Assembly (NCBI GenBank): GCA_910580185.1
Contig: CAJTWC010000003.1
Location: 34,304-98,303, forward strand
DNA: 64,000 nt
Direction: 5' to 3'
From: an uncultured Bacilli bacterium
GTDB taxonomy: Bacteria > Bacillota_I > Bacilli_A > RF39 > UBA660
Part shown: piece after piece, positions 17,747 to 41,212 of the stretch
Numbering within the stretch: position 1 is the stretch's first letter
Layout: each line of letters opens with the position of its first letter
Position numbers and translations under genes: made by a program
The notes under the pieces: generated by a model
The model's input: only the letters and a program-made list of their open reading frames with translations
The model's database searches: none
What the model was told of the DNA's origin: nothing

Positions 17747-17839
17747 TTGTCTTTGATTTTGTACTACATATGTTATATAATATTAAATGTACTAATGATG
17801 ATATAGACATCATTAAATATATTTATAAGGATGGTTAAA

Positions 17840-20014
17840 ATGAAAGGAAAATTTGTTAAAAGAATAATTATATTCTTTGTAGTCATAGCATTATTTAGTT
17901 TAATATACATTCCACTATTTAATGATATGAAGTTTGGCCTTGATTTAAAAGGCGGATTTGAAGTGTTATATCAAGTTAAAAGAAGTGATGGTAAAAAGCT
18001 TGCCTCTAGTGATATGAGTAGCACTTATGACGTTTTAAAAAGAAACGTTGATTCTTTAGGTGTATCAGAACCTGAAATAACAATGGAAGGGACTGATAGA
18101 ATAAGAGTAAAATTAGCAGGTGTAACTGATATTGAAGGTGCAAGACGTGCATTATCAAACGTTGCTAACATATCATTTAGGGATACCGATGATAAGTTAT
18201 TAATGGATGCTAGTGTTATAAGTGGAGCTAAATTATCTTATGATGAATCTGGAAAGCCTGCTATTTCTTTACAAGTAAAAGATAAGGAAAAGTTTTTAGC
18301 AGCTACTACGGAAATTAGTAAGAAAGAATCTGGCAAAAACTTAATGGTAATATGGTATAACTATGAAAATGGTGTTAACTCATATGCCAAAGATAGTGAA
18401 ACTTGTGGTGAAGAAGGAAGTCTATGTTTATCTGCCGCAACTGTTTCTCAAGGATTTTCATCTGATGTTATCATAACTGGTAATTTTGAAAAAGAAGAAG
18501 CAGAAAGCTTAGCAACTAGTATTAATGCTGGTTCTATTTCAACAAAGCTTACTGAAATATCTTCTCAAAACGTTAATGCATCATATGGTGAAGGAGTTCT
18601 TACTAAAACTTTTACCGCAGGCATCATAGGTATGATATTAGTTATATTATTCATGACGATACTATATAAGTTTTATGGCTTTATATCAGGTGTTAACTTA
18701 CTTTTATATATGTTATTAGTTATGGGAGTTTTTTGGTTAATAGGTGGAGTTTTAACTCTTCCTGGTATTGCAGCATTAGTCTTAGGTATAGGTATGGCGG
18801 TTGATTCTTGCGTTGTTACAAGTGAAAGAATAAAAGAAGAATTACAATCTGGTAAAAATTTAAAAACTGCTTATGAAAATGGAAACAAGGAGTCTTGGAG
18901 TACGATATTCGATGCTAATGTTACAACGTTTATAGTTGCAATCGTATTATTCATTTTTGGTGAATCTTCAATTAAAGGTTTTGCAACAATGCTTATGATT
19001 ACCATATTTGCAACTATGTTTATTATGGTATTTATAAATAGACAAATATTAAAGGCTTTTGTAAAAACAAACATTTTCGATAAAAAGCCTAATATATTTA
19101 TTAAGTTCGAAAAGAAAAATAATAAATCATTAAAGAAAATAAAGATAAATTCAATTAAGATAATTAAAAAATGCATTACTATTACCTTAATATACTTAGT
19201 TATAGGCGTTATATTTTTAGCAGTTAATGGTCTTAACTTAGGAATAGATTTTAAAGCTGGGTCAGATATTACTTTAAGCGCTGATAATATGAAAACATCG
19301 GAAGTAAAAAAAGATTTAGAGGATATGGGATATAAAGTAGCATCTATTACAAAACAAGAAAATAACGAAATATACGTAAGATTAAATAACGAATTAAAAG
19401 AAGATGGAATAAATAAAGTAAATAATCATTTCGAAGAAAAATATAATGCTAAAACTGAAATTAACGTTGTAACTAACATAGTTAAACAAGAACTTGTTAA
19501 AAACGCAATATATTCAGTTTTAATAGCAGCGGTTGCAATAATAATTTATATTTCATTTAGATTTAAATTTAGTTATGCAATATCATCAATATTAGCACTT
19601 GCACATGACGTTTTATTCGTAATAATATTATTTAGTATATTTAAAATAGAAGTTAATGTTATATTTATCGCAGCTTTATTAACAATAGTTGGTTACTCAA
19701 TTAATAATACGATAGTGGTATTTGATCGTATTAGAGAAAATCTTGGCAAATTTAAAAAGAAACTTACTAAAGAAGAATTAAAAGGCGTTGTAAATGATAG
19801 CATATCTAATACGTTTAATAGATCGTTATATACTACAATTACTACGTTAATACCAGTTATTTGCTTAATAATATTTGGTTCTAAAGGAATATTACCATTT
19901 AATATCGCAATGATATTTGGGCTTGTTGCTGGTTGCTATTCATCAATGCTTCTAGCAGGACAAATATGGTATTTAATTGAAAAGAAAAATTGTAAAAAAG
20001 AAAATAATAAATAA
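17840..20014 (+). CDS. secDF: protein translocase subunit SecDF (fused)
   Basis: Length around 725 aa with two SecD/SecF-type 6-TM bundles and periplasmic domains; start is the ATG at 17840 (AAGGA RBS) or at 17831. Confidence 0.9.
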   Translation: MKGKFVKRIIIFFVVIALFSLIYIPLFNDMKFGLDLKGGFEVLYQVKRSDGKKLASSDMSSTYDVLKRNVDSLGVSEPEITMEGTDRIRVKLAGVTDIEGARRALSNVANISFRDTDDKLLMDASVISGAKLSYDESGKPAISLQVKDKEKFLAATTEISKKESGKNLMVIWYNYENGVNSYAKDSETCGEEGSLCLSAATVSQGFSSDVIITGNFEKEEAESLATSINAGSISTKLTEISSQNVNASYGEGVLTKTFTAGIIGMILVILFMTILYKFYGFISGVNLLLYMLLVMGVFWLIGGVLTLPGIAALVLGIGMAVDSCVVTSERIKEELQSGKNLKTAYENGNKESWSTIFDANVTTFIVAIVLFIFGESSIKGFATMLMITIFATMFIMVFINRQILKAFVKTNIFDKKPNIFIKFEKKNNKSLKKIKINSIKIIKKCITITLIYLVIGVIFLAVNGLNLGIDFKAGSDITLSADNMKTSEVKKDLEDMGYKVASITKQENNEIYVRLNNELKEDGINKVNNHFEEKYNAKTEINVVTNIVKQELVKNAIYSVLIAAVAIIIYISFRFKFSYAISSILALAHDVLFVIILFSIFKIEVNVIFIAALLTIVGYSINNTIVVFDRIRENLGKFKKKLTKEELKGVVNDSISNTFNRSLYTTITTLIPVICLIIFGSKGILPFNIAMIFGLVAGCYSSMLLAGQIWYLIEKKNCKKENNK

Positions 20015-20030
20015 GAAAAGAGTGATTTTA

Positions 20031-22193
20031 ATGAAGCTAAAAGAAAAAGCATACACACTTGATGATTTAATTAAAAAAGCAAGTGAATATATAAAAATTG
20101 ATGAACAAATCGAAGTAATTAAAAAAGCTTATTCTTTTGCTTATAAAGCTCATTTTGGAGATAAGAGACTAACGGGTGATGATTTTATTCTTCACCCTTT
20201 AAACGTTGCTTTGATTCTTACTGAAATATACGCAGATTACGAAACCCTTGCAACCGCGTTATTGCACGATGTAATTAATTTTTCAAACATAACATTAGAA
20301 GAAGTAGAAAAAGAATTTGGCACTGAAATAAGAAATTTAGTTGATGGCATCTCAAAGATAAATAAGTTATCGTTATCGGCAGAATCTAATGCAACAGCTA
20401 CTTACTACAAAAAAATACTAGTTGGGTTATCTGGAGATGTACGTATAATTATATTAAAAGTCGCTGATCGTCTTCATAATATGAGAACTTTATGGGCTAT
20501 ACCAGAAAATAAAAGAAAAGAAAAAGCAAAAGAAACATTAGAAATACTTGTTCCAATAGCGCATGGTCTTGGTATTAATCATATAAAAAGTGAGTTAGAA
20601 GATTTATGTTTAAAATATTATAATCCTGATGTTTATAATGATATCTTAGAAAAATTAAACGAAACAAGGCAAGAGTTAGATGAATCTGTAAATCAAATGA
20701 TGCAAAGCGTATCAAAAGTATTAACAGAAAATAACATTCCTCATGAAATGAAGGGTAGAAGTAAAAGCGTTTATAGTATATATAGAAAACTTCAAAAAGG
20801 TAAATCATTTAATGAAATATATGATATATTAGCACTTCGCTTTTTTGTTAAAACAGAAGCTGAATGTTATTTAGCATTAGGCGCAATACACGCTAAATTT
20901 AAACCAGTTCCAAGAAGATTTAAAGATTATGTTGCAAGGCCAAAGGCAAATGGTTACCAATCTTTACATACTACGGTATTTGGAGTTGATGGTAAGTTAT
21001 TTGAAATTCAAATTAGAACCTATGATATGGATTATGTTGCAGAATATGGTTTTGCATCTCACTGGTCATATAAAGAAGGCACTGCAAAACGAAAAAATAA
21101 CCTAGAAGAAAAATTAATGTCTTTTAGAAATATAATTGAATTAAATGAACAGCAAGTAGAATCAGAAGAAGAATTTGTAAACGTAGTTAAAAACGAGGTA
21201 TTTAATTCTAAAAACATATACGTATATACGCCAAAAGGAGACGTATTTGAACTTCCTCTTGGATCTACACCAATAGATTTTGCGTATAGAGTTCACACTT
21301 CAATTGGGCACCAAATGGTAGGAGCAATTGTAAATAATATGATTGCGCCGCTTAATTACCAATTAAAAGATGGAGATATTGTTAAAATAAACACTAATAA
21401 AAATAGTAAGGGTCCATCTAAAGAATGGATTAATATAGCTTTTACAACTAGTGCTAAAAATAAAATAAAAGCTTTCTTTAGCAAAGTTGATAAAGATGAA
21501 ATGATTAATAAAGGAAAAGATGCTTTATTAAAAACCATACGAAGAAAAAAATTATCTATTAATGATGTACTAGACAATAAAGCAGTTGAAAAAGCACTTG
21601 TAGAATATAACTTAGATAGTGAAAATGATTTATATTATGAAATAGGTATAGGTAAATATAATCCTACTTCCATAATCAAAACTATAATTGGAATAACTAA
21701 TGATGAAAATGATTCAGTAAAGAAAATTCTAAAGAATGCATCTAACGTAAGCGACCCTAAAGGAGATGTATTAGTAGATGGTATAAATGGTATAAAAGTA
21801 TCCTTTGGTGGATGTTGTATGCCAGTTTATGGAGATGATATCGTTGGTTACATTTCAAAAGGCAATGGAATTACGATTCATAGAAAAAATTGCCATAATA
21901 TTTTTGAGGGAAATGATAGACTAATACACGTAGATTGGAATGAAAAACTAAATAAAAAATATATTACAAACGTTTTAATCTATGCTGACAAAAAAGATGA
22001 CTTATTAGCCAATATAATTACCAAAACAACTTCTATGGGAATTGGTGTTAAAAGTGTTAATACGATATTAAATAACGATATATACATATTTGATTTAAAT
22101 GTATTAGTTACTGATAATGAAGTGCTTGACAAATATATCGCTGCTATATCGAATGTAGCAGGGGTTAGTGAAGTTCAAAGGGGCAATAAATAA
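20031..22193 (+). CDS. relA: GTP pyrophosphokinase / (p)ppGpp synthetase-hydrolase RelA/SpoT
   Basis: HD-domain LLHDV motif, synthetase domain, TGS and ACT regions; about 720 aa; the start was chosen after the secDF stop. Confidence 0.9.
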   Translation: MKLKEKAYTLDDLIKKASEYIKIDEQIEVIKKAYSFAYKAHFGDKRLTGDDFILHPLNVALILTEIYADYETLATALLHDVINFSNITLEEVEKEFGTEIRNLVDGISKINKLSLSAESNATATYYKKILVGLSGDVRIIILKVADRLHNMRTLWAIPENKRKEKAKETLEILVPIAHGLGINHIKSELEDLCLKYYNPDVYNDILEKLNETRQELDESVNQMMQSVSKVLTENNIPHEMKGRSKSVYSIYRKLQKGKSFNEIYDILALRFFVKTEAECYLALGAIHAKFKPVPRRFKDYVARPKANGYQSLHTTVFGVDGKLFEIQIRTYDMDYVAEYGFASHWSYKEGTAKRKNNLEEKLMSFRNIIELNEQQVESEEEFVNVVKNEVFNSKNIYVYTPKGDVFELPLGSTPIDFAYRVHTSIGHQMVGAIVNNMIAPLNYQLKDGDIVKINTNKNSKGPSKEWINIAFTTSAKNKIKAFFSKVDKDEMINKGKDALLKTIRRKKLSINDVLDNKAVEKALVEYNLDSENDLYYEIGIGKYNPTSIIKTIIGITNDENDSVKKILKNASNVSDPKGDVLVDGINGIKVSFGGCCMPVYGDDIVGYISKGNGITIHRKNCHNIFEGNDRLIHVDWNEKLNKKYITNVLIYADKKDDLLANIITKTTSMGIGVKSVNTILNNDIYIFDLNVLVTDNEVLDKYIAAISNVAGVSEVQRGNK

Positions 22194-22639
22194 TGAGGGT
22201 AATTATTCAAAGAAGTAAAGAAGCAAGTGTAGAAGTAAATGATAAAATAATTGGTAAAATTACTCACGGCTATGTTTTGTTAATTGGCTTTACAAATGGT
22301 GATAACAAAGAAACAGTTGATAAGATGATTAATAAAATAATAAATCTAAGAATTTTTTCGGATACTAGCGATAAACTTAATCTTAGTTTAAAAGATGTAA
22401 ACGGAAGCGTTTTATCAATATCGCAATTTACTTTATATGCTAAATTAAATGGTAGAAGGCCTTCGTTTACTGATGCATTAAACTATAAAGAAGCTAAGGA
22501 ATTATATGAATACTTTAATCATAAATTAGAAATAGAAGAAATAAATGTTCAAACAGGAGAGTTTGGGGCGGATATGAAAGTTAGTTTAATAAACGATGGT
22601 CCAGTAACCATTATTATTGATAGCAAGGAGGATTTCTAA
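22193..22639 (+). CDS. dtd: D-aminoacyl-tRNA deacylase
   Basis: MRVIIQR N-terminus; 148 aa; immediately downstream of relA, as in Bacillus. Confidence 0.9.
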   Translation: MRVIIQRSKEASVEVNDKIIGKITHGYVLLIGFTNGDNKETVDKMINKIINLRIFSDTSDKLNLSLKDVNGSVLSISQFTLYAKLNGRRPSFTDALNYKEAKELYEYFNHKLEIEEINVQTGEFGADMKVSLINDGPVTIIIDSKEDF

Positions 22640-23700
22640 TGAAGAGTGTTAATTATAAATATTTAAACATACTCTTAATTTTAGGAATAGCTTACTTGCT
22701 ATTTTTAATGAAAGATGTATGGCTTGGGGTTGTAACTAAAATATTTAATATATCTTTTCCTTTTATAATAGCATTTGGTATAGCATATGTCTTTTATCCG
22801 TTTTTAAAGTTTTTAATAAAAAAAGGGATTCCTAAATGGTTATCTGTTTTAATAATAATTTTAAGCGTATTATTAATTGTTGGATTAACTACTTATTTTG
22901 TATTTCCTTTATTTATTGATCAATTAATAAATCTTTTATCTAGTATTTCTAAAGTAACCAGTGATTTAGGTTTAAAATATGGGATTGATATGAATACCAT
23001 AAATAGTTATGTAATCAATTTATCATCAAAATTATTAGAGTCAGTTGGAACATTTATATCAAGCGGAAGTTTAATTAAAGTTTTATCAGGTTGGGTTGAT
23101 GTAATAACTAAATTTATAATAATATTTATTGTTAGTATATATTTCTTATCTGATATGCCTAAAATAAGATTGAAAATAAAAGACTTTATGAAGAAAAAAG
23201 ACAAAAAGAAATATGAACTTATTAAGAATATAGATAATGAAATATATAGCTATCTTAAAGGCCTTGGAATATTTATGATAATTCAATTTTTTGAATATAC
23301 GTTATTGTTCTTAATAATAGGACATCCAAACTTCTTACTTATCGGCATCTTAGCATGTATCACAACCGTTATTCCTTATTTCGGAGGTATCATAACAAAC
23401 TTAATTGCCCTTGTAATAGCATCAGTTATATCTTCTAAGTTGTTTATATTAACACTTATAATCACACTGGTATTTCCAAATATTGATGGTTATGTTATAT
23501 CACCTAAAATATACGGTAAAACAAATGAATTGCCAGCTATTCTAACCGTGTTTGTGGTGTTTGCAGGTGGAGCCTTATTTGGCTTTACCGGAATAGTAAT
23601 TGCAGTACCACTTACCATTATATTAATGGCTATTATAAAAGCATATAAGCCTGAAATAGAAAAAGGTTTTAAAAAGATTAAAAATAAAAATAAATTATAA
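22639..23700 (+). CDS. AI-2E family transporter (PerM/UPF0118)
   Basis: 353 aa with 8 TM helices and typical AI-2E topology; AAGGAGG RBS. Confidence 0.6.
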   Translation: MKSVNYKYLNILLILGIAYLLFLMKDVWLGVVTKIFNISFPFIIAFGIAYVFYPFLKFLIKKGIPKWLSVLIIILSVLLIVGLTTYFVFPLFIDQLINLLSSISKVTSDLGLKYGIDMNTINSYVINLSSKLLESVGTFISSGSLIKVLSGWVDVITKFIIIFIVSIYFLSDMPKIRLKIKDFMKKKDKKKYELIKNIDNEIYSYLKGLGIFMIIQFFEYTLLFLIIGHPNFLLIGILACITTVIPYFGGIITNLIALVIASVISSKLFILTLIITLVFPNIDGYVISPKIYGKTNELPAILTVFVVFAGGALFGFTGIVIAVPLTIILMAIIKAYKPEIEKGFKKIKNKNKL

Positions 23701-23729
23701 AAAAGTGGTAAAAAAATATCACTTTTTTC
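23700..23729 (+). terminator. intrinsic terminator after the AI-2E gene
   Basis: AAAAGTG-loop-CACTTTTTT. Confidence 0.4.
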
Positions 23730-23834
23730 ATATTTTTAGGGGATTTTTAAAATTTTTGACTAACAATTAATTAGGAGGCAATAGAAACTAGCTTTGTTTT
23801 CCATCTTACTAGAATAGGAAGGTGGGTGATATTT

Positions 23835-23924
23835 ATGAGGTTTAGATTTGAAATAAAATTTAGTCCAAAATTAATTATCATATTATTACTTGTAATAGCC
23901 CTAGTGTTAATTACTAGTATATAA
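23835..23924 (+). CDS. 29-aa hydrophobic peptide (MRFRFEIKFSPKLIIILLLVIALVLITSI), candidate type I toxin-like small membrane protein
   Basis: Strong SD AAGGTGG 9 nt upstream; single predicted TM helix; stop codon abuts a 16-bp bidirectional terminator hairpin; missing from the ORF track because of its size. Confidence 0.4.
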   Translation: MRFRFEIKFSPKLIIILLLVIALVLITSI

Positions 23925-24005
23925 GAAAAACAGAGTTAGTGACAAACTAGCTCTGTTTTTCAATAAACAAAACATATGGAAAACAACTAGTAATGTTGCT
24001 TCCTT
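23918..24005 (-). ncRNA. candidate convergent antisense small RNA overlapping the terminator of the 29-aa ORF
   Basis: Minus-strand promoter with -35 TTGAAT (plus 24036-24041), 17-nt spacer and -10 TATAAT (plus 24013-24018); transcription runs into the bidirectional terminator, giving an RNA of about 85 nt. Confidence 0.3.
23925..23961. terminator. bidirectional intrinsic terminator (16-bp stem, GACAA loop)
   Basis: GAAAAACAGAGTTAGT / ACTAGCTCTGTTTTTC pair perfectly apart from one G-U pair. Confidence 0.6.
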
Positions 24006-24098
24006 CATTTATATTATATATTAAATTTTGTAGTTATTCAATTATTTTATCTTTCTTTTTTTTAAATAATGATATATAATTAAATCATAGGAGGATAT

Positions 24099-24653
24099 AT
24101 GAAAATAGCATTAATAATTATTTTAGTAATCGTAGTATTAATAGTAATGTATTTAATATCTACGTATAATTCACTTGTTGGATTAAGAAATAAGGTAAAG
24201 GATCAATGGTCACAAATCGATGTTGTGTTAAAAAACAGAAACGATTTAATACCAAATCTAGTTGAAACTGTTAAAGGTTATGCAAAACATGAAAAAGAAA
24301 CTTTAGATGCTGTTATAAACGCAAGAAGTAAAGCTGCTAACGCAACTTCTGTTGAAGAAGAAATGAAAGCTGCTGGTGAAGTTACACAAGCTTTAGGTCG
24401 TTTATTTGCAATCGCTGAAAGTTATCCAGATTTAAAAGCTAATACTAACTTTTTAGATTTACAAAGTAAATTAAATGAAGTTGAAGAAAAAATACGTTTT
24501 GCAAGACAGTTTTATAATGATACAGTTTTAAATTATAAAAACAAACTTGAAATGTTTCCATCTAATATAGTAGCTAATATGTTTGGCTTTAAACCAGAAG
24601 CTTTCTTTGAAGCTACTGAAGAAGAAAGAAAAAACGTACAAGTTAAATTTTAG
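24099..24653 (+). CDS. lemA: LemA family protein
   Basis: N-terminal TM, then the YNSLVGLRNKVKDQWSQIDVVLKNRNDLIPNLV signature typical of LemA; 184 aa. Confidence 0.85.
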   Translation: MKIALIIILVIVVLIVMYLISTYNSLVGLRNKVKDQWSQIDVVLKNRNDLIPNLVETVKGYAKHEKETLDAVINARSKAANATSVEEEMKAAGEVTQALGRLFAIAESYPDLKANTNFLDLQSKLNEVEEKIRFARQFYNDTVLNYKNKLEMFPSNIVANMFGFKPEAFFEATEEERKNVQVKF

Positions 24654-24680
24654 TCTACTAACAAAGTAGACTTTTTTCTT
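24652..24680 (+). terminator. intrinsic terminator or attenuator between lemA and the DUF2207 gene
   Basis: AGTCTACT-AACAA-AGTAGACT followed by TTTTTTC. Confidence 0.5.
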
Positions 24681-24702
24681 TTAAAAGGAGGAGAAAAAGT
24701 GT

Positions 24703-26427
24703 ATGAAAAAAATATTTAAATTCATATCAATTGCTATACTATTATTTATTTTTCCGCTTGTTGTAAAAGCAAATAGTATATCTTCCATTGATATGGATAT
24801 ATACGTAGATGAAAGTGGCACTGCACACGTAACAGAAACTTGGAGTGCTAATTTAAATCAAGGTACCGAAGGATATAAACCATATTATAATCTTGGTAAC
24901 GCAAAAATATCAAATTTTAAAGTTAGTGAAAATGGTAAAACATATACATATAATGACTATTGGAACACTAATGATAGTTTTGATAAAAAAGCATATAAAA
25001 ATGGTATTAATTATATTTCGGATGGTTTAGAGCTGTGCTGGGGTATAAGTAGTTACGGATACCATAATTATGTTTTAACTTATGATATAGAAGGATTTGT
25101 AGCAACCCTTGATGATGCTGATATGATTTATTGGACGCTTATTCCATACGAATTGTCATCGAAACCAGATGACGTACATATTAAAATACACACTGATAAT
25201 TATTTAAGTGATAGTGTGCCAGTTTGGGGATATGGAAATTATGGTGGTACTGCATACGTATATGATGGTTATATAGAAATGAATTCTGAAGGCACATTAG
25301 AATCAAATGAGTACATGACCATATTAGTTAAATTTGATAAAGGAACGTTTAATACATCTAATACATTAAGTGAAGATTTTGATTACTATCATGATATGGC
25401 AGATGTTGGTGCAACAAAATATAAGGATGATAAAAAATCAAGCTTTTTAGATATTATAATGTCCATCTTTGCAATCGTTTTTCATTTTTTTATTTGGGTT
25501 GTTGTTGTAATAACTATCTCTAAAAGTATGAAGAATGCTGCTAATAGAGTTGGCACTAAGACCTTTAATTTTGGTCCACAAGGGAAAGTATTACCAAAAG
25601 ATATACCTAACTATCGTGATATACCATTTAATAAAGACATATTTAGAACTTTTTGGATAGCAGAAGGCTATAAATTAAATAAAAACAAAACAGATTTTTT
25701 AGGAGCAATTTTACTTAAATGGTTAAAAGAACAAAAGATATCTATAAAAAAAGTAGAAGCTGGTTTTATAAAGAAAAAGGAAGAAACCGCAATTGATTTA
25801 ACCAAGGAAATAACCTTTGATGAAGTATTAGAACAAGAATTATTTGATATGATGAAAGAAGCAAGTCGTGATGGTATCCTTGAATCTAAAGAATTTGAAA
25901 ACTGGTGTGATGATAATTATAGTGAAATTTTAACCTGGTTTGATAAGGTAATAGATAAGGAAACTGATGAATTAATTCTTGAAGGAAAAATAACCGTAAC
26001 AGAAAAAACTAACCTTAAAGTATTTAAGTCCAAGGAATACGTAGTTGATCCATCGATGAAAGAGGAAGCTATTAAATTAAAAGGATTAAAGAACTTTTTA
26101 GAAGAGTTCTCAAGAATAGATGATAAAGAAGCGATTGAAGTAAATATGTGGGAATATTATTTAATATATGCACAAATACTTGGAATTGCAGATAAGGTTG
26201 CTAAACAATTTAAGAAATTATATCCTGAAATTATCGATAATCCAGAACTTGGTTATACATATACTGACATTATGTTTATACATATGGTAAGTCATAGTGG
26301 AATGCGCACAGCAACTACATCACAACAAAGAGCACAAAGCTATTCATCTGGCGGCGGCGGATTCTCTTCTGGAGGAGGTGGAGGCGGCTCCTTCGGTGGT
26401 GGTGGAGGCGGAGGAGGCTTTAGATAG
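24703..26427 (+). CDS. DUF2207-domain membrane protein (LemA partner) with a Gly-rich C-terminal tail
   Basis: Signal peptide, central TM, and C-terminal SSGGGGFSSGGGGGGSFGGGGGGGGFR typical of DUF2207; encoded directly downstream of lemA. Confidence 0.7.
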   Translation: MKKIFKFISIAILLFIFPLVVKANSISSIDMDIYVDESGTAHVTETWSANLNQGTEGYKPYYNLGNAKISNFKVSENGKTYTYNDYWNTNDSFDKKAYKNGINYISDGLELCWGISSYGYHNYVLTYDIEGFVATLDDADMIYWTLIPYELSSKPDDVHIKIHTDNYLSDSVPVWGYGNYGGTAYVYDGYIEMNSEGTLESNEYMTILVKFDKGTFNTSNTLSEDFDYYHDMADVGATKYKDDKKSSFLDIIMSIFAIVFHFFIWVVVVITISKSMKNAANRVGTKTFNFGPQGKVLPKDIPNYRDIPFNKDIFRTFWIAEGYKLNKNKTDFLGAILLKWLKEQKISIKKVEAGFIKKKEETAIDLTKEITFDEVLEQELFDMMKEASRDGILESKEFENWCDDNYSEILTWFDKVIDKETDELILEGKITVTEKTNLKVFKSKEYVVDPSMKEEAIKLKGLKNFLEEFSRIDDKEAIEVNMWEYYLIYAQILGIADKVAKQFKKLYPEIIDNPELGYTYTDIMFIHMVSHSGMRTATTSQQRAQSYSSGGGGFSSGGGGGGSFGGGGGGGGFR

Positions 26428-26507
26428 CCTTCTTTTTTCTTATAATCAATTATAAATAAAGTAAAGTATTAAAAAATAGAAAAAGTATAGTATAATTAAT
26501 TATAGAG

Positions 26508-26753
26508 GTGATATTTTTGGCTAATAAATCTAATAATTATAGTGATAGTAACTTAAACGAGTATGATATTAGAAATTTTTTAAAAAAAGATGAAGAAAGA
26601 AAAGCTTTTCAAAGGGATAAAGTAAAAATAGAAGTTGGAGATCTTCCTAATATTCTTGATGGATCAAGTTTTTATGATCCGTATAAAAAGGGAGTTTCTT
26701 TTAAAAGCCCTGATGGAAAATCAAAAGTTTTTTCTAAAGACTGTATTATATAA
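26508..26753 (+). CDS. small hypothetical protein (TTG start)
   Basis: AGAGGTG RBS 6 nt before the TTG; 81 aa. Confidence 0.3.
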   Translation: MIFLANKSNNYSDSNLNEYDIRNFLKKDEERKAFQRDKVKIEVGDLPNILDGSSFYDPYKKGVSFKSPDGKSKVFSKDCII

Positions 26754-26759
26754 TAGTAT

Positions 26760-26788
26760 TTGACTAATCTTTAAAAATATAATAAAAT
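26760..26788 (+). promoter_or_regulatory. sigma70-like promoter (-35 TTGACT, 17-nt spacer, -10 TAAAAT) driving the T-box leader
   Basis: Read directly from the sequence. Confidence 0.45.
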
Positions 26789-26793
26789 ATATT

Positions 26794-26935
26794 TAGTTTT
26801 TAGTAAGAAGTGACAACTTACAAATAAAATAAAAACTAGACAATTAAATAATATAAACAAAGAGCACTTATGTGAAATAGGGTGGCACCGTGGACAGATT
26901 TGTTCATCCCTATAACTTTAAGGCTCTTTTTATTT
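26794..26935 (+). promoter_or_regulatory. T-box-like leader RNA upstream of the GATase-hisS-ORF-aspS operon
   Basis: AAUAGGGUGGCACCGUGG at 26876-26893 matches the T-box consensus AAUUAGGGUGGNACCGCGG. A candidate antiterminator can be drawn as AGGG / 7-nt bulge UGGCACC / 7-bp helix GUGGACA:UGUUCAU / CCCU. A short stem-loop at 26794-26838 has a GAC (Asp) codon in its apical loop. A U-run lies at 26925-26935. A canonical terminator helix could not be drawn. Confidence 0.45.
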
Positions 26936-26949
26936 AATAAGGAGTGCTT

Positions 26950-27570
26950 ATGAAAAAAGTAGCAATATTACTTAGACTTAATAGAAAAGAAGAAAACGCT
27001 AAAGAAACGTTTTGGATAAAAGAAGACGTGATTAATGTTTTCAAAAATTATGATGTTAACTATTTTCTAATTCCTATGAATACCGCTTCGAATGATGATT
27101 ATGATAACATCATTGAAAAGATAAAGATGGCAGACGGTGTTATTATTCCAGGAGGAGTACGTGGTGGTTCTAAAATGGAACTAGATATTGTTAAATATTT
27201 ATATGATAATGATATCCCAACCATCGGTGTTTGCTTCGGACATCAAAGTATGGGCGTAGTATTTGGTGGTAAAAAAGAAAACGTAGAGGGCCACCATAAA
27301 TTAGGAGAAAAATATGTCCATTATGTTAATATAAATAAGGATTCTTTATTATATAAGATAATAGGTAAAGAAAGATTACTAGTTAATAGTAAACATAAAA
27401 AAATAGTTGTTGGTACAAGCTTGGATATTTCAGCATATAATGATGAAAATATGCCAGAAGCATTTGAAGATAAAACTAAAAAATGTTTTATAGGAGTACA
27501 ATGGCATCCAGAAAGTATAATGGATCTTGATAACAAAAAAATATTTGATTACTTTATAAGTAAGTTATAG
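26950..27570 (+). CDS. class I glutamine amidotransferase-like protein (peptidase C26 / gamma-glutamyl hydrolase family)
   Basis: GVCFGHQ nucleophile motif and QWHPE; AAGGAG RBS 7 nt upstream of the ATG at 26950. Confidence 0.65.
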   Translation: MKKVAILLRLNRKEENAKETFWIKEDVINVFKNYDVNYFLIPMNTASNDDYDNIIEKIKMADGVIIPGGVRGGSKMELDIVKYLYDNDIPTIGVCFGHQSMGVVFGGKKENVEGHHKLGEKYVHYVNINKDSLLYKIIGKERLLVNSKHKKIVVGTSLDISAYNDENMPEAFEDKTKKCFIGVQWHPESIMDLDNKKIFDYFISKL

Positions 27571-27583
27571 AAAGGAAGATATT

Positions 27584-28939
27584 ATGATAACTAAACCAAA
27601 AGGAACAAAAGATATTTATGGGGTAGAAGCTAAAAGATGGCAGTACGTATCTAAGGTAATAGACGAGGTAATGGAAAAGTATAATTATAACTTTATACGT
27701 GTTCCAGTATTTGAAGCAAGCGAATTATTTCATAGAGGAGTTGGAGAAACAACTGATATAGTAACAAAAGAAACTTATGATTTTACTGATCGTGGTGGTC
27801 GATGCATGACTCTTAGACCAGAAGGTACTGCGGGAGTTGCTAGATGTTTCATTGAAAATAAAATGTATGGTGATAATAACCAGCCAATAAAACTTTATTA
27901 TAATTGTCCGATGTATCGATATGAAAGACCACAAGCAGGAAGATATAGAGAACTTACTCAATTTGGTTATGAACTTATTGGAAGTGATGATCCACTAGCA
28001 GATGCTGAAGTAATAAGCCTTGCCGTTAACATATATAAAATACTTGGTTTAAAGGGAATTAAAGTTAATATTAACTCATTAGGGGATGCTGAATCTAGAA
28101 ATAACTATAGAGAAGCTTTAATTAATCACTTTAAACCACATATAGATGAGTTATGCTCTGATTGCAAAGAAAGATTAGAGAAAAACCCTTTAAGAATACT
28201 TGATTGTAAAGTTGATGCTGATAAAGAAGTTATGAAGACGGCTCCTAAAACAATAGATTACCTAAATAAAGAATCTAAAGAAAGATTTGAGAAAGTAAAA
28301 GAGTATTTAGAAGTTATGGGCGTTGAATACATAGTTGATCCATCAGTAGTTAGGGGTCTTGATTATTATAATCATACCGTGTTTGAAGTAGAAGCTGATA
28401 TTGAAGGATTTGGTGCTCAAAACGTTATTGGTGGTGGAGGCCGTTATAATGGCATGATAGAGCAGTTAGGCGGGCCTAGTACTCCAGCGATTGGTTTTGC
28501 AGCAGGCTTTGATAGACTAATGCTTGCTTTAGAGTATGAAAAGGTAAATATACCGGTAAATGAAAGCGTAGATTTGTTCTTACTATACGTAAATGATGAT
28601 GAGAAAAAATACGCTGCATACTTAACTAATGAACTTAGAATGAATGGTTTTGTTGTAGAAACCGATTATTTAAATAGAAGCTTAAAAGCAGGATTTAAAC
28701 AAGCCGATAGGTTAAATAGTAAATTCACTATCGTACTTAATAGTGAAATGTTAGAAAATAACGAAGTCAAAATTAAAAATAATAAAACTAAAGAAGAAGA
28801 AACTATATCAATAGATGCACTAATTTATTATTTAGATGAAAATATAATAGAAGATGAAAATTGTGGATGCTCGCATGATGATCATGAATGTGGTTGTGGT
28901 GATTCATGCAAGTGTCACAACAAGGATAATAATGAATAA
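27584..28939 (+). CDS. hisS: histidine--tRNA ligase with an unusual Cys/His-rich C-terminal tail
   Basis: Typical HisS N-terminus MITKPKGTKDIYG and class II motifs; 451 aa; C-terminus ENCGCSHDDHECGCGDSCKCH. Confidence 0.95.
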   Translation: MITKPKGTKDIYGVEAKRWQYVSKVIDEVMEKYNYNFIRVPVFEASELFHRGVGETTDIVTKETYDFTDRGGRCMTLRPEGTAGVARCFIENKMYGDNNQPIKLYYNCPMYRYERPQAGRYRELTQFGYELIGSDDPLADAEVISLAVNIYKILGLKGIKVNINSLGDAESRNNYREALINHFKPHIDELCSDCKERLEKNPLRILDCKVDADKEVMKTAPKTIDYLNKESKERFEKVKEYLEVMGVEYIVDPSVVRGLDYYNHTVFEVEADIEGFGAQNVIGGGGRYNGMIEQLGGPSTPAIGFAAGFDRLMLALEYEKVNIPVNESVDLFLLYVNDDEKKYAAYLTNELRMNGFVVETDYLNRSLKAGFKQADRLNSKFTIVLNSEMLENNEVKIKNNKTKEEETISIDALIYYLDENIIEDENCGCSHDDHECGCGDSCKCHNKDNNE

Positions 28940-29495
28940 TTTCGAAATAAAAGAGCTTATAAGACAAAAATTTAATGCTATATCAGATCCAGTAGTTGCT
29001 AAAAACTATGATGGTTTTATTGATCAAGATGGATACTTTTATGCATCTGCCCTTAAGTATCGACATGAACCAAGTCATGCTGATTTAGCCCTTGATATAT
29101 TAACTTACTATGATATCATAGTAAATGATGAAAAAGGTGGAATCTTTAGCAAGGTAAAAGAATTCATGTTTTCATATGTAAAAGATGATTATGAAAGAAA
29201 AAAATTGGCGCATTTAAAAGCTCACGTTAATCCAACTAAAGAATTAATTGAAAAATTAAAATTTATGTATTATAGTCATTCTCAAAAAGCCAACAGAAGG
29301 CCTATTATAGAAATAAATGATATGGGAATAGTAAGTAGAGAACAAAAAAATATGTTGATAAGTATTTTACAATTAAATAATGAGTTATCTTTTTTACCAG
29401 ATGATTTAATAGGCGCTAAAAAAGAAGAAATGCACCAAAGATATGTTGATAACTATATTATAAAAAATATGAATAAGGAGAATATAAACAAATGA
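28932..29495 (+). CDS. hypothetical protein inserted between hisS and aspS
   Basis: The ATG overlaps the hisS stop (ATGAATAA); 187 aa; no known motifs. Confidence 0.45.
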   Translation: MNNFEIKELIRQKFNAISDPVVAKNYDGFIDQDGYFYASALKYRHEPSHADLALDILTYYDIIVNDEKGGIFSKVKEFMFSYVKDDYERKKLAHLKAHVNPTKELIEKLKFMYYSHSQKANRRPIIEINDMGIVSREQKNMLISILQLNNELSFLPDDLIGAKKEEMHQRYVDNYIIKNMNKENINK

Positions 29496-30793
29496 TTAAT
29501 TATAAAGAATGTATAAATAAAAAAATTACAATATCTGGCTTTGCTGAAAAGGTTAGAAATCTTCAATGGGTACAATTTATAGTACTTAGAAATGAAGGTC
29601 AAAGAATTCAAGTCACTATTGAAAAGTCTGATGAAAAAAATAAAGAAATGGTTGAAATTGTAGATAAGTTAACCAACGAGTCAACCATTACGGTAACTGG
29701 AACAATAAAGGAAAATGAAAAAGTTAAGATGGGCGGTATGGAGCTAATCCCAGAATCTATTACCGTAACTAGCTTATCAGCGCCTGAACTTCCTATTAAC
29801 ATAACTAATAAGGATGCAGCAGCAATTGATACTAGAATGGATAATAGATTTATTGACCTTAGAAACGATGTTAATTTTCATATATTTAAAATACAAACTG
29901 AATTCGTAAGAGCGATGAGACAGTATTTATATCAAGAAGATTTCACTGAAATTCATACTCCAAAATTAATTGGAGCAGCATCAGAATCAGGTAGTGAAGT
30001 ATTCGAAGTTGATTACTTTGGAGATAAAGCATATCTTGCTCAATCACCACAATTTTATAAACAAATGGCAATAGCAGCAGGATATGAAAGGGTATTTGAA
30101 GTAGCGCCAGCATTTAGAGCAGAAAATTCAAACACTAATAGACACGCAACAGAATTCACTTCATTTGACTTAGAATTTGCTAACATAAGATCATATGAGG
30201 ATGTTATGGCCGTCGAAGAAGACCTTTTAGTAGAAGGCCTTACTGCAGTTAAAGAAAAATATGGAGATTTAATAAAAGAATTATATGGCGTTGACGTAGT
30301 AGTTCCAACTAGGCCATTCCCTAGAATAGACTTACAAGATTTATATAAAGAATTAAGTGAAAGATATGGTTATAAAGTACCCGATCATGATATTGGTGAT
30401 ATGAATGCCGAAGCAGAAAAATTAACTAGTCGTTATGCGATGGACGTATATGGTCATGAATTTATCTTTGTAACTGGTTTTAGTAAAGCAAAAAGACCAT
30501 TCTACCACATGAGAAAAGATGGTATTCCTCAAGGTTATGACCTTATCTGGAAAGGTACTGAAATAACAACTGGGGCACAAAGAGAACATAGATACGATGT
30601 GTTAGAAGCTCAAGCAAACGAAAAAGGTTTAGGAGAGGATATTAAATTTTATAAAGACTTCTTTAAATATGGATGTCCACCACACGGAGGCTTTGCGCTT
30701 GGAATTGATAGAATGACAATGTTACTTTTAGGATTACCATCATTAAAAGAAACAATGTTCTTATTTAGAGGGCCAAACAGAATTACACCTTAA
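29492..30793 (+). CDS. aspS: aspartate--tRNA ligase, archaeal/type-2 (short, about 433 aa)
   Basis: Class IIb motifs (FRAENSNTNRHATEF; GGFALGIDRMTMLLLGL); C-terminal ...FRGPNRITP ending typical of AspRS2; much shorter than the roughly 590-aa bacterial AspS. Confidence 0.8.
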   Translation: MINYKECINKKITISGFAEKVRNLQWVQFIVLRNEGQRIQVTIEKSDEKNKEMVEIVDKLTNESTITVTGTIKENEKVKMGGMELIPESITVTSLSAPELPINITNKDAAAIDTRMDNRFIDLRNDVNFHIFKIQTEFVRAMRQYLYQEDFTEIHTPKLIGAASESGSEVFEVDYFGDKAYLAQSPQFYKQMAIAAGYERVFEVAPAFRAENSNTNRHATEFTSFDLEFANIRSYEDVMAVEEDLLVEGLTAVKEKYGDLIKELYGVDVVVPTRPFPRIDLQDLYKELSERYGYKVPDHDIGDMNAEAEKLTSRYAMDVYGHEFIFVTGFSKAKRPFYHMRKDGIPQGYDLIWKGTEITTGAQREHRYDVLEAQANEKGLGEDIKFYKDFFKYGCPPHGGFALGIDRMTMLLLGLPSLKETMFLFRGPNRITP

Positions 30794-30817: not shown

Positions 30818-31384
30818 ATGGAAAATAAAAATAATAATTATGTAAAAGAAGCATTTGATAAAATTGAACATAGAAAAATTTTACTTAATAATAGAGCAAT
30901 TGAAGCAGATAATTATATAAATAAATTAAATAATTTCATTTTGTATAATAATATGGAAATAAGCTCAATAGTATGTGAAGAAATGCAGTATTACGTAGGA
31001 AATTTAATATGTAATATTTTATTAATTGAAAATGCTATATTAGCTAATATAGTTACAGCTAATGGCTCAGATCCTAATATAATATTTATGTCTTTAAGTA
31101 TTTGTGAGTCTATAAGATTAGCAGATAATAATAATTTTTCTAGAAAATTCATACCTTCTCTTAAGGATTTGTTAAGTAATATATTTGAATTAAAAAAAAT
31201 GAATCGTATTGCACGTAGGCAAATTAATAATAAAGATATTGAGTTAGAAAAATATAGAAAAGAATGTGAATTAAAGGCCCACGAAATAATAAACAACATA
31301 TTTTCAGAAGAAAATATGTATTACGACGGAAACGTCATAAATGAAGAAATAGATAAAGCTAAATCAATAGGTAATAATAATTAA
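30818..31384 (+). CDS. hypothetical protein
   Basis: GGAGGG RBS; 188 aa. Confidence 0.45.
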   Translation: MENKNNNYVKEAFDKIEHRKILLNNRAIEADNYINKLNNFILYNNMEISSIVCEEMQYYVGNLICNILLIENAILANIVTANGSDPNIIFMSLSICESIRLADNNNFSRKFIPSLKDLLSNIFELKKMNRIARRQINNKDIELEKYRKECELKAHEIINNIFSEENMYYDGNVINEEIDKAKSIGNNN

Positions 31385-31525
31385 AATTACAAGTAAGTAT
31401 GAAATATCAAAAAATAATATAGATTAGTATATTATTTTTTTATTTACAAGATATAACCATTTATTATTGTTTTTTAATTTAAAATAATATATAATTATCT
31501 TAGAATGAATAGGAGTGGGATTATG

Positions 31526-32173
31526 AAAGAAGAAATGCTTAGTTTAGAAGCTGATTTTGCAAACAATGAATATTTTGGCACCAACGTATGGACTGATGAA
31601 AAATACCGTGTATTAAGCGGTAATGTTCCTGTCCTTCTTTCAGCACCCCACACTGTTAATCAAATAAGAGGCGATGATGTTAGGGATGCCGAGAAATTTA
31701 CTGGAGCACTAGTAAGATATTTATCTTCTGCAACCAATTCATACGCAATATTTCAAATTTTTACTCACTCTGATCCAAATACTGATAAAGAAAATGATTA
31801 TAAAAATGGTATTATAAACATCATAAATGGTTTTAATATAAAATTATTACTTGATATACATTCTAGTACATTTAAAGATGATACTGATATTGACATTGTT
31901 ACAAACAATAGAGAATCATTAAGGGGAATGGATACTTTAGTTGATAAATTAAAAGAGTTAGGTATAAAATATGATGTTAAATTTGATGAAATGAACGAAC
32001 CAAATAAACAAAAAGAAAACGAAATAATATATGCATCATCATTACTATGTAACATCCCATCTATAAGATTAGTTATTAATAATAAAAGATTAAACATAGA
32101 AGAAGATGATTCATCAATTAAAAAAATAGAAGAATTATTAGAGGAGTTTATATCGTATTTTAATTATTCATAG
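31526..32173 (+). CDS. hypothetical protein
   Basis: AGGAGTGGG RBS upstream of the ATG at 31526; the ORF track begins at 31505. Confidence 0.45.
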   Translation, partial: KEEMLSLEADFANNEYFGTNVWTDEKYRVLSGNVPVLLSAPHTVNQIRGDDVRDAEKFTGALVRYLSSATNSYAIFQIFTHSDPNTDKENDYKNGIINIINGFNIKLLLDIHSSTFKDDTDIDIVTNNRESLRGMDTLVDKLKELGIKYDVKFDEMNEPNKQKENEIIYASSLLCNIPSIRLVINNKRLNIEEDDSSIKKIEELLEEFISYFNYS

Positions 32174-32194
32174 TGTAAAGTTTTGTCTTTACTA

Positions 32195-32224
32195 TTGAAT
32201 AAAATATTACATAAGTGATATAAT
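32195..32224 (+). promoter_or_regulatory. strong sigma70-like promoter (-35 TTGAAT, 18-nt spacer, extended -10 TGaTATAAT)
   Basis: Read directly; the transcription start is predicted near G32231. Confidence 0.5.
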
Positions 32225-32230
32225 ATAAAT

Positions 32231-32409
32231 GCCTAAAGGTATCGGGCGCTAGCACATTTAACCCGCTAAGATTTAATAGGGAATCAGAATCAATAGTGGT
32301 GTTCATGCTTAAATTTATTTAAGAAGTCTAAAACTATTGTGGGATGCCCACCTGCGAGAATTGCAGGTTTATCTTGTTAGCAAACGACCCTTTGGGTTCT
32401 TTTTTTTTA
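32231..32409 (+). ncRNA. candidate stand-alone structured small RNA of about 180 nt, identity undetermined
   Basis: The locally GC-richer segment lies between a strong promoter and an intrinsic terminator (ACGACCC-UUU-GGGUUCU followed by U9). It contains adjacent hairpins GUGGG-AUGC-CCCAC and CCUGC-GAGAAUU-GCAGG. There is no long ORF, and the downstream gene has its own TTGACG/TAACAT promoter. Confidence 0.35.
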
Positions 32410-32500
32410 CAAAAAAACGTTTGTTCATAATTTTTTAATAAATGATTTGACGAAGAAGCTCTTTTTTGTTAACATAATTTTTATAAAAAGGAGAAATTTT

Positions 32501-33136
32501 ATGGCCATATATGAAAAATTAAGTCATAATCAAAACGTAGTTTATCATAAAACTTCAAAAACTTCTGATAAATACAATAGTTATTTAACTCATGAGTGGC
32601 TATTTATTAATTTGTTGTACAAGGAAGAAATAAAAAAAGATCTTGAGCTTGCTAAAAAGTTTTTAATGTATATGATACAATATCATCCAGAGTATAAATG
32701 GACTAGCTTAGATTTAAACAATCCCGTTGGAACAGTTATATTAGAAAGCGATATTTCAGATAAAACTTTTAGTGGAATTAACATATTTAAAGACGAGGAA
32801 GAAGCTAAAACGAAAGCAATGGAATACGGGGAAAATGTCACAGACTTTTTAATACGTTATAGAGGTTATTCTTTAATAAAATGCCAAAATGAAAACATTA
32901 TAATTACAGCCCAAAGTAATTGTGATAAAATATTTGAAGAAGAATTATATAATGGATATTCACTCCAAAGGAAAGCAAAACTCCGTTATGTAAAAACAGA
33001 TGATATAATTAGAAAAACGTATCCTATGATTGATGGATATTTTACTCATTTACCGGTTCTTCCAACAAAAGAAATTGGAATTGAGATAGATGAAATGATT
33101 GAAAATACTGATGGTGTTTTTGTAAAAGTAAAATAA
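32501..33136 (+). CDS. hypothetical protein
   Basis: AAAGGAG RBS upstream of the ATG at 32501 (the ORF-track start at 32447 is unlikely). Confidence 0.45.
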   Translation: MAIYEKLSHNQNVVYHKTSKTSDKYNSYLTHEWLFINLLYKEEIKKDLELAKKFLMYMIQYHPEYKWTSLDLNNPVGTVILESDISDKTFSGINIFKDEEEAKTKAMEYGENVTDFLIRYRGYSLIKCQNENIIITAQSNCDKIFEEELYNGYSLQRKAKLRYVKTDDIIRKTYPMIDGYFTHLPVLPTKEIGIEIDEMIENTDGVFVKVK

Positions 33137-37686: not shown

Positions 37687-38571
37687 ATGAATAGAAATAT
37701 TGAAGAATATATAAATTATATATATATTGAAAAAAAACTAAGTGATAATACAAAAGATGCATATCAAAGGGATTTATTATCATTCTCTAATTTTTTAAAT
37801 AACAAAAAAATTAATAACATTACTACTAATGACATAAGAGATTATATAAACCATTTAAGTGATAATAATGATAAGGATAAAACGATTGCAAGAAAAGTAG
37901 TTAGTATAAGAACCTTTTTTGATTATTTGATGAGAGAAAATAAAATAAGTACTAATCCTTGTGAAAAAATAGAATTACCAAAAATCAAAAAAACTCTTCC
38001 TAAAACGTTATCAGAAGAAGAAATAAATATGCTATTAGATTTTAAGCCTAATACGGCGTTAGAGCATCGTAACAAAGCAATGCTTGAGCTTGCATATGGT
38101 TGTGGTTTACGTGTCTCAGAACTTGTTAATTTGTCCTTAAATGATATTAATTTAGAAGATGATTATATAAGAATATTTGGTAAAGGGAAAAAAGAAAGAA
38201 TAGTACCTATGGCAACTATTACTACTAATATATTAGAAGAATATATAAACGTATATAGAAATAGTCTATTAAAAGGATATCTTACTGATAAACTATTTAT
38301 CAGTAGCTATGGAAAGGCTATAACAAGACAGGGATTCTTTAAAATGCTTAAAAAGCATGCTAAAGAAATGGGAATAGAAAAAGACTTTTCTCCTCATACT
38401 TTAAGACATTCTTTTGCAACTGAATTACTGGAATATGGTGCAGATCTTAGAAGTGTAGGAGAGATGTTAGGCCATGAAAATATTAAAACTACTCAAATAT
38501 ATACACATTTATCAAATAATAAATTAAAAAAAGATTATGAGGAATATCATCCTAGAAATAAAAAAATATAA
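37687..38571 (+). CDS. xerD: site-specific tyrosine recombinase, XerD/XerC-like
   Basis: C-terminal catalytic region HTLRHSFATELLEYGADLRSVGEMLGHENIKTTQIYTH with the R..H..R..Y residues; 294 aa; N-terminal core-binding domain. Confidence 0.8.
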   Translation: MNRNIEEYINYIYIEKKLSDNTKDAYQRDLLSFSNFLNNKKINNITTNDIRDYINHLSDNNDKDKTIARKVVSIRTFFDYLMRENKISTNPCEKIELPKIKKTLPKTLSEEEINMLLDFKPNTALEHRNKAMLELAYGCGLRVSELVNLSLNDINLEDDYIRIFGKGKKERIVPMATITTNILEEYINVYRNSLLKGYLTDKLFISSYGKAITRQGFFKMLKKHAKEMGIEKDFSPHTLRHSFATELLEYGADLRSVGEMLGHENIKTTQIYTHLSNNKLKKDYEEYHPRNKKI

Positions 38572-38658
38572 TTTCCGAAAATCTTACGATTAAATAAAAA
38601 ACATTGCTAATAAAAATATAATTTGTTATAATAACCACCATATAAGGTGGTTATTATT

Positions 38659-40527: not shown

Positions 40528-40547
40528 TAAAGAAGGAAAATGATAAT

Positions 40548-41162: not shown

Positions 41163-41212
41163 CCACCTATCAGTATAATTTATAATTCTAATAAAAAGGA
41201 GACAAAAAGGAA

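Follow-up and report, generated by a model that had tools for sequence, protein, structure and literature searches.

In Escherichia coli, the prolyl isomerase SlyD has an unstructured tail that differs between orthologs, abounds in His, Cys, Asp, and Glu, and can bind up to seven Ni(II) ions (PMC7055735). The SlyD tails of E. coli and Helicobacter pylori take up several Ni/Zn ions per chain (PMC7055735; PMC3292732), and Ni binding to the SlyD tail reversibly inhibits peptidyl-prolyl isomerase (PPIase) activity (PMC7055735). Domain B of the H. pylori GroES (HspA) consists of about 27 amino acids with four Cys and eight His, acts in Ni storage and detoxification, and has cysteines that form disulfides (PMC5116745). 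Among metallothioneins, the Neurospora crassa Cu-metallothionein of family 8 (MGDCGCSGASSCNCGSGCSCSNCGSK; PMC4755600) and the beta-domain of the mammalian protein MT2A (PMC7996892) both have the Cys pattern CxC-x5-CxC-x3-CxC, and metallothioneins are also described as antioxidants (PMC7996892). The present analysis concerns a Cys/His-rich tail on another carrier, the histidyl-tRNA synthetase (HisRS) encoded by hisS in a 64,000-nucleotide stretch (hereafter the window; 26% GC) of contig CAJTWC010000003.1, which belongs to an uncultured Bacilli bacterium. Zinc sites are known from other aminoacyl-tRNA synthetases (aaRSs), as zinc knuckles in MetRS/IleRS-type enzymes and as catalytic Zn in ThrRS, AlaRS, and CysRS. 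Those sites lie within folded domains, have a fixed CxxC-type spacing, and are conserved for catalysis or structure. The HisRS tail likewise offers Cys/His ligands within an aaRS, but it is terminal, variable, dispensable, and predicted to be disordered. At a probability of roughly 55%, this tail is an unstructured metal-binding appendage, with the buffering or storage of Zn, Ni, Co, or Cu as its most likely role.

The hisS product is a bona fide HisRS, a class IIa aaRS, and not a HisZ paralog. In the NCBIfam search, it reached 487.9 bits with TIGR00442 (cutoff 286.75), whereas the HisZ models all remained below their own cutoffs (167.1 bits for TIGR00443; cutoff 271.65). The best PDB match is the 420-aa Staphylococcus aureus HisRS 1QE0 (E=2.9e-151). 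Canonical bacterial HisRSs, such as those of S. aureus (1QE0), E. coli, and Thermus thermophilus, have the same catalytic and anticodon-binding domains as the window protein, and their chains end about two residues past the start point of its tail. In the alignment, 1QE0 pairs with query residues 1-417 and ends two residues later, which leaves query residues 418-451 beyond the canonical end. The tail is defined here as the last 32 residues, N420-E451, past this canonical C-terminus. Translation of the open reading frame (ORF) gives a protein that ends in ...YYLDENIIEDENCGCSHDDHECGCGDSCKCHNKDNNE, or in a longer quotation ...ALIYYLDENIIEDENCGCSHDDHECGCGDSCKCHNKDNNE. The earlier annotation of this locus from its letters alone (the sequence-only reading) had quoted this C-terminus and the length of 451 aa correctly. 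It had also located the tail to within 1 nt (nt 28841-28936) and had rightly set it beyond the anticodon-binding domain, where the PF03129 match stops at residue 419.

The composition of the tail is unusual for this genome region. It contains six Cys (C427, C429, C436, C438, C442, and C444) and three His (H431, H434, and H445); the sequence-only reading had the number of His right and overcounted the Cys as seven. The Cys form three CxC pairs within 19 aa, with the spacing CxC-x6-CxC-x3-CxC. The tail is also strongly acidic, with nine Asp/Glu against two Lys. In the 63 other proteins of the window, the Cys frequency is 0.93%. About 3e-4 segments of 19 aa with at least six Cys are expected by chance, and the maximum elsewhere in the window proteins is three Cys. 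The Cys density of the tail is therefore more than chance. No other Cys-dense segment was found in the six-frame translation of the window, and none beyond HisS in the 916 kb that flank hisS in 80 genomes. Two other class II aaRS genes of the window, a Lys/Asn-type gene at 13498-15003 and aspS, both lack such a tail. Within the window and these flanks, the tail is specific to HisS. The catalytic core of the enzyme has an invariant CxxC...C motif (C191, C194, and C208). In the 1QE0 alignment, this motif is also present in the S. aureus HisRS, and it is therefore not tail-specific. It is an unlikely partner of the tail, as the S. aureus enzyme that shares it is tail-less.

The tail is not an artifact of assembly. 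The identical 451-aa protein occurs on three contigs (NCBI and Logan), and all 120 best homologs, with 80-95% identity and from independent metagenome assemblies, have comparable tails. A frameshift or other sequencing or assembly error, which the sequence-only reading had named as a possible refutation, is therefore ruled out.

The pattern of conservation points to the Cys residues. Among 39 relatives with at least 80% identity, the mean pairwise identity is 85.8% for the core and 97.1% for the six Cys columns, compared with 23.8% for the non-Cys columns of the Cys/His block. Cys is invariant at positions 427 and 438 and conserved at 90% or more at the remaining four, such that the six columns have Cys in 37-39 of the 39 relatives. 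At these conserved positions, close relatives switch synonymously between TGT and TGC, and the constraint is therefore on the amino acid and not on the DNA or RNA. Taken together, these comparisons indicate that selection acts specifically on the Cys residues of the tail.

A scan of species-representative genomes provided 80 loci with 67-93% identity to the window HisRS. These are all low-GC (22-35%) metagenome-assembled genomes (MAGs) from gut, rumen, or feces; all sequences compared in this work are MAG-derived. Their labels include uncultured Bacilli, Tenericutes or Mollicutes, Ca. Aphodocola and Ca. Faecimonas (both Bacilli incertae sedis according to NCBI), Clostridium sp. CAG:451, and Mycoplasma sp. 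CAG:877. Seventy-three of the 80 loci have at least four Cys after the conserved YYLDE motif that marks the end of the anticodon-binding domain. The tails range from 18 to 132 aa in length and from 0 to 41 in number of Cys. Across 79 species-level tails, the composition is 19.6% Cys, 17.3% Asp, 14.8% Glu, and 10.0% His. These four residues thus make up 62% of the tails, which bears out the earlier description of the composition as resembling a metal-binding appendage. Hydrophobic and aromatic residues are almost absent (Phe, Tyr, and Trp together below 2%). Among the Cys-Cys spacings in these tails, CxC accounts for 49%, Cx3C for 25%, and CxxC for 3%. One sub-clade (L014-L018 and L020) has kept an acidic tail in which all Cys were lost or replaced.

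Some tails have been enlarged by repeats. The tail DNA of L061 (7273-7646) consists of an 18-nt unit in 20.8 copies with 93% match, which encodes (DDCSCG)n with 41 Cys and one His, and that of L063 (1505-1692) has a 66-nt unit repeated 2.8 times. These tandem arrays point to a slippage-type expansion of a Cys-rich unit. Such arrays raise the question of whether the tail is a selectively neutral, low-complexity extension, in which slippage-prone, AT-rich codon repeats (TGT, GAT, CAT, and GAA) are tolerated at a free C-terminus. The huge length range, the tandem expansions, the loss of Cys in one sub-clade that kept hisS, and the lack of any partner genes found are all compatible with this explanation. 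However, Cys columns that are more conserved than the core (97% vs. 86%) beside nearly randomized neighboring positions, together with the synonymous changes of Cys codons, are not what neutrality predicts. In addition, no DNA tandem repeat was found in the tail-coding sequence of the window itself, and the tail is kept in at least 70 species-level genomes. Moreover, similar tails occur in a 52%-GC organism, and AT-biased slippage is therefore not the cause. A neutral, functionless tail is highly unlikely.

The tail has no predicted fold. AlphaFold was run with a diverse alignment of 147 sequences and modeled the core confidently, with a mean predicted local distance difference test (pLDDT) of 83.6 and a predicted template modeling (pTM) score of 0.80; an earlier run with only relatives of at least 80% identity had a mean pLDDT of 54 and was discarded. 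The last helix of the anticodon-binding domain, with the YYLDE motif at its end, spans residues 410-420 at pLDDT 94. Apart from residues 425-451, no run of at least three residues falls below pLDDT 50, and this segment appears as an undocked coil at pLDDT 30-34. Because the model contains no metal ions, this result means that no fold is predicted and serves as supporting evidence only; it is consistent with a disordered apo state. The sequence-only reading had proposed that AlphaFold could reveal whether the tail folds back onto the catalytic core, and no such docking was observed.

These results also bear on the idea of a structural zinc module, a ribbon or knuckle that is folded back on the catalytic core or aids tRNA binding. 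With six Cys and three His in 19 residues, the tail could form one or two tetrahedral Zn sites. However, the paired CxxC or CPxC knuckles of zinc ribbons and fingers are absent from the window tail, and their compact beta-hairpin is not predicted there. CxxC is rare across species, the number of ligands (0-41 Cys in orthologs) and their spacing are not conserved, and AlphaFold returns a coil. Furthermore, no zinc-finger Pfam family matched at E up to 10, and the acidity of the tail would repel tRNA. The zinc ribbon that the sequence-only reading had suggested thus finds no backing in the tail, and a structural zinc module of any kind is very improbable.

No Pfam, NCBIfam, or PDB sequence family accommodates the tail. 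A Pfam search with the window tail gave no match at E up to 10, zinc-finger and metallothionein families included, a PDB sequence search gave none at E up to 10, and no NCBIfam match was found for the tail. When the tail was doubled (54 aa) as a homology query, two word-sharing candidates were returned and neither scored. The long tails of relatives reach sub-threshold scores with PF00131 (14.5 bits; E=0.039; cutoff 23), PF01439 (11.5 bits), and PF02067 (8-11 bits). The window tail has the composition of a metallothionein (high Cys, CxC/CC/CxxxC, and no aromatics), but it does not reach the gathering score of a metallothionein Pfam family and is not a stand-alone small polypeptide, being fused to a 419-aa enzyme. 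It does fit the description of the SlyD/HspA/HypB/UreE-type tails, which are variable terminal extensions rich in His, Cys, Asp, and Glu and which constitute a functional class and not a homology family.

Tails of this kind are absent from most bacterial HisRSs. In a wider sample of 150 representatives of 50%-identity clusters, which are 38-64% identical to the window HisRS, nearly all proteins end at about 415-430 aa. Only four of the 150 have Cys-rich tails (P0137, P0138, the fragment P0139, and, weakly with three Cys, P0148), and one more (P0129) has a His-rich tail. This rarity agrees with the earlier statement that canonical bacterial HisRSs lack the extension. In a crude neighbor-joining (NJ) tree without support values, P0137, P0138, and P0285 are placed apart from the window clade, with tail-less lineages between them. 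The P0285 locus is from a 52%-GC MAG and has the gene context recJ-relA-hisS-aspS. Among its 119 best relatives, a list in which tailed proteins may be slightly overrepresented since the query has a tail of its own, 87 have four or more Cys among their 45 C-terminal residues, and a further 25 have four or more His. The few named ones are labeled 'Erysipelotrichales bacterium', 'Firmicutes bacterium', or 'Bacilli bacterium'. In the tails of this second group, CCC triplets and HHHH runs are frequent, His makes up as much as 17%, a single tail can have up to 15 His among its last 45 residues, and His-only tails exist (e.g., ...EEHHHHEE). CxxC makes up 1% of the Cys-Cys gaps in both groups of alignment A2. 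Judged from these sequences, the tail is lineage-restricted but broad, and covers the gut Bacilli clade as well as an Erysipelotrichales-related group. The ortholog alignment proposed by the sequence-only reading as a check of lineage specificity has thus given a qualified yes. As to its further caveat that such tails might be widespread and already annotated, they are indeed widespread in these two groups, but the databases name the tailed homologs plainly 'histidine--tRNA ligase'.

Two origins are compatible with this distribution. There may have been a single gain in the ancestor of these related Bacilli followed by diversification, or there may have been multiple gains, and the NJ tree cannot decide between them. 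The nearest tail-less relative, P0121 (64% identity), represents a sister lineage and stops at the start point of the tail (...YLDMNI, then the stop codon). At its locus (L082; 5001-9457), hisS is followed by a gatC-like ORF, gatA, and gatB instead of aspS. This layout is a different organization of the Asp/Asn-tRNA genes beside hisS in the closest tail-less lineage. An origin of the tail by fusion with a small downstream Cys-rich gene is unsupported, as there is no such ORF after the P0121 hisS.

The abundance of thiols could also indicate a redox-active tail. In a gut anaerobe sensitive to oxygen, its cysteines would serve as a sacrificial antioxidant or form a disulfide switch instead of binding metal. 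The very high Cys density and the status of Cys as the sole conserved residue agree with this explanation, as do the precedents of disulfides in HspA domain B (PMC5116745) and of metallothioneins as antioxidants (PMC7996892). However, His, Asp, and Glu regularly accompany Cys, with His prominent in the second group, and some tails have His only. Metal ligation fits this combination better, and a primarily redox role is decidedly unlikely.

Compared with the described systems, the tail is closest to metallothioneins in pattern and to SlyD and HspA in architecture. The Cys pattern of the window tail is nearly identical to that of the two metallothioneins given above, with x6 in place of x5 between the first two CxC pairs. 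Further likenesses are the Cys content of about 30% within the block, the absence of aromatics, and the tandem multiplication of units. Unlike metallothioneins, the HisRS tail is fused, very acidic, and His-containing, and the resemblance is one of pattern only, with no homology shown. The SlyD tail and the HisRS tails are alike in position, composition, variability, and predicted disorder. They differ in the carrier, which is an FKBP prolyl isomerase in one case and a class II aaRS in the other, and in the preference of the HisRS tail for Cys in CxC pairs over His. HspA domain B is similar in being a lineage-restricted Cys/His tail on an essential housekeeping protein, and second-group HisRS tails such as ...HECCCGHHHKEEK look very similar to it. 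However, domain B is found only in H. pylori and one close relative and is fairly fixed, whereas the HisRS tails occur in hundreds of species and are hypervariable; moreover, domain B has CC pairs where the window tail has CxC pairs. Searches of the searchable literature for HisRS with Cys-rich, His-rich, metal-binding, or metallothionein-like tails, or for the HisRS of Erysipelotrichaceae, found nothing relevant. SlyD, HspA, and metallothioneins provide examples of this kind of appendage; its occurrence on an aaRS, its wide distribution in gut Bacilli, and its hypervariability seem not to have been described.

From these likenesses we infer metal binding, the choice of metal, and the role in storage or buffering. 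The tail consists nearly entirely of metal-ligand residues (Cys, His, Asp, and Glu) plus Asn, Gly, Ser, and Lys, and it would most likely serve to chelate metal ions of soft or borderline character, by default Zn(II), with Ni(II)/Co(II) or Cu(I) fitting equally well. Binding would involve the three CxC pairs and the His residues in a small metal-thiolate or thiolate/imidazole cluster, with one tail per subunit and two per HisRS dimer. As in SlyD and HspA, the tail would turn a constitutively expressed housekeeping enzyme into a carrier for a metal reservoir or buffer. Aminoacylation itself is independent of the tail, because most HisRSs lack one and one sub-clade has replaced all of its Cys. 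Metal loading might nonetheless feed back on HisRS activity, comparable to the Ni-inhibited PPIase of SlyD.

Such feedback is central to another explanation, in which the tail is a metal sensor or regulatory switch. The binding or loss of metal would then alter the activity, oligomerization, or stability of HisRS and couple the charging of tRNA-His to metal or histidine-metal status, instead of serving storage. Histidine is a major cellular metal ligand. The occurrence of tails on HisRS in two sequence-distant groups, and not on the neighboring AspRS or the Lys/Asn-type aaRS, hints at a link that is specific to HisRS. The reversible inhibition of SlyD by Ni on its tail provides a precedent (PMC7055735). 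However, a sensor is expected to have a defined site, yet the tails are free to differ in length, in how many ligands they have (4-41 Cys), and in how these are spaced, with tandem expansion in some species. AlphaFold shows no contact between tail and core, and one sub-clade has no Cys at all. These features make a sensor, though plausible, unlikely.

Several points count against a metal-binding appendage with a role in storage or buffering. Metal binding by the tail is putative, no Pfam, NCBIfam, or PDB sequence family matches it, and its very high Asp/Glu content is unusual for classical metallothioneins. The sub-clade without Cys implies that the function of the tail is dispensable or replaceable. 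A storage or buffering role does not account for the choice of HisRS as the carrier, and other proteins elsewhere in these genomes may carry similar tails. The surrounding genes offer no hint of a metal either, as only two of them are metal-related, a ZIP transporter at a distance of 16 kb and an M14 peptidase. Among the Pfam-scanned ORFs of the window with at least 110 aa, there are no hyp, ure, nik, or hydrogenase genes. The coordinates of hisS, its domains, the parts of the tail, and the main neighboring features are listed in Table 1.

Table 1. Features of the hisS locus in the 64,000-nucleotide window (positions count from the first nucleotide of the window).
Feature	Position	Strand	Basis or remark
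hisS, histidine--tRNA ligase, 451 aa	27584-28939	+	ORF list; stop codon 28937-28939
Class II catalytic core with HisRS insertion, aa 7-312	27602-28519	+	PF13393, E=2.2e-46
HGTP anticodon-binding domain, aa 332-419	28577-28840	+	PF03129, E=4.4e-14
Acidic linker NIIEDEN, aa 420-426, start of the extension	28841-28861	+	Linker pairwise identity 0.49
Cys/His block CGCSHDDHECGCGDSCKCH, aa 427-445, putative metal-ligand cluster	28862-28918	+	Sequence; Cys conservation
Polar tail end NKDNNE, aa 446-451	28919-28936	+	Read from sequence
187-aa ORF between hisS and aspS (ORF187)	28932-29495	+	No Pfam/NCBIfam match
aspS, short 433-aa type (PF00152 and OB fold, no GAD insertion)	29492-30793	+	Window
6S (SsrS) RNA gene	32227-32402	+	Rfam, 65 bits (gathering score 46.4); sole Rfam match in the window
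ZIP-family (ZupT-like) zinc transporter	44994-45755	+	16 kb downstream of hisS; sole recognized metal-transport gene in the window

The gene order around hisS is relA-dtd-...-hisS-ORF187-aspS. At 17831-27570 (+), the usual Firmicute cluster secDF-relA-dtd-hisS-aspS is split between dtd and hisS. The genes inserted there encode an AI-2E family transporter, LemA, a DUF2207 membrane protein, and a class-I glutamine amidotransferase/peptidase C26, the last of which ends 13 nt upstream of hisS. On the other side, the ATG of ORF187 (28932-28934) overlaps the hisS stop (ATGAATAA), and an AAGGA Shine-Dalgarno-like site (28922-28926) lies 5 nt upstream of it, inside the tail DNA. Homologs of ORF187 (27-73% identity) occur in about 12 of the 20 closest loci, independent of the state of the HisRS tail. 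A functional link between the tail and ORF187 is rejected, as the presence or absence of ORF187 does not track the tail. In loci L001-L081, hisS is followed by a gene for one of two AspRS types, the short type of the window (58-95% identity) or a bacterial type (about 30% identity), which in L081 has 578 aa and a GAD domain. Repeated exchange of one type for the other seems to have taken place in this radiation.

This arrangement is relevant to a possible device at the mRNA level, in which runs of His and Cys codons would sense charged tRNA-His in an attenuator-like manner and control hisS or aspS. Some tails are rich in His (up to 15 in the last 45 aa) on the very enzyme that charges tRNA-His, the hisS stop overlaps the start of the next ORF, and the Rfam search of the window found no T-box or other riboswitch before hisS or aspS. 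However, the conserved residue in the window clade is Cys and not His, as illustrated by the L061 tail with its 41 Cys and single His. The downstream arrangement, with or without ORF187 and with two AspRS types, varies independently of the tail, and the co-enrichment of Asp and Glu has no rationale in codon sensing. Such a device is scarcely credible.

Other features of the window were noted as well. Two runs of ORFs without Pfam matches are present, one at 30818-33136 (+) with 188, 222, and 229 aa, and the other at 38647-41875 (+) with 626, 204, and 220 aa. The latter adjoins a tyrosine recombinase/integrase (37687-38571) and helix-turn-helix (HTH) regulators and may be an integrated element. 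Homologs of SpoIIM and SpoIVB (peptidase S55) are encoded at 52618-53250 (-) and 54546-55535 (-), respectively. The presence of both indicates that sporulation genes are kept in an organism that databases label as Tenericutes- or Mollicutes-like.

Appended domains are a major theme among the aaRSs of eukaryotes, whereas bacterial aaRSs rarely have them. A metal-ligand tail conserved on HisRS across hundreds of species in the gut would establish a new class of aaRS appendages. If it binds metals as proposed, HisRS would join the few housekeeping proteins that carry metal reservoirs (SlyD and HspA). Should the tail prove to have no effect on metals or activity, it would be merely a curious low-complexity extension. 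As natural His/Cys tags, the tails would co-purify in immobilized metal affinity chromatography (IMAC) and bias metalloproteomic studies, and the hypervariable expansions, with up to 41 Cys, would offer a natural series for the evolution of metal-thiolate arrays. A more far-reaching conjecture, which is speculative and rather unlikely, is that the HisRS of this gut Bacilli radiation, which comprises uncultured 'Tenericutes-like' Bacilli and an Erysipelotrichales-related group, is bifunctional and represents the first aaRS fused to a metallothionein-like module. Its tail would then act as a main cytosolic buffer of Zn, Ni, or Cu in these bacteria with reduced genomes, or would link the charging of tRNA-His with the histidine-metal pool. 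In that case, the tail would be on HisRS for a functional reason and not by historical accident. The organisms with tailed HisRS are uncultured and abundant in the guts of humans and animals, where the host restricts Zn, Mn, and Ni. In these bacteria with reduced genomes, the tail could be part of metal buffering.

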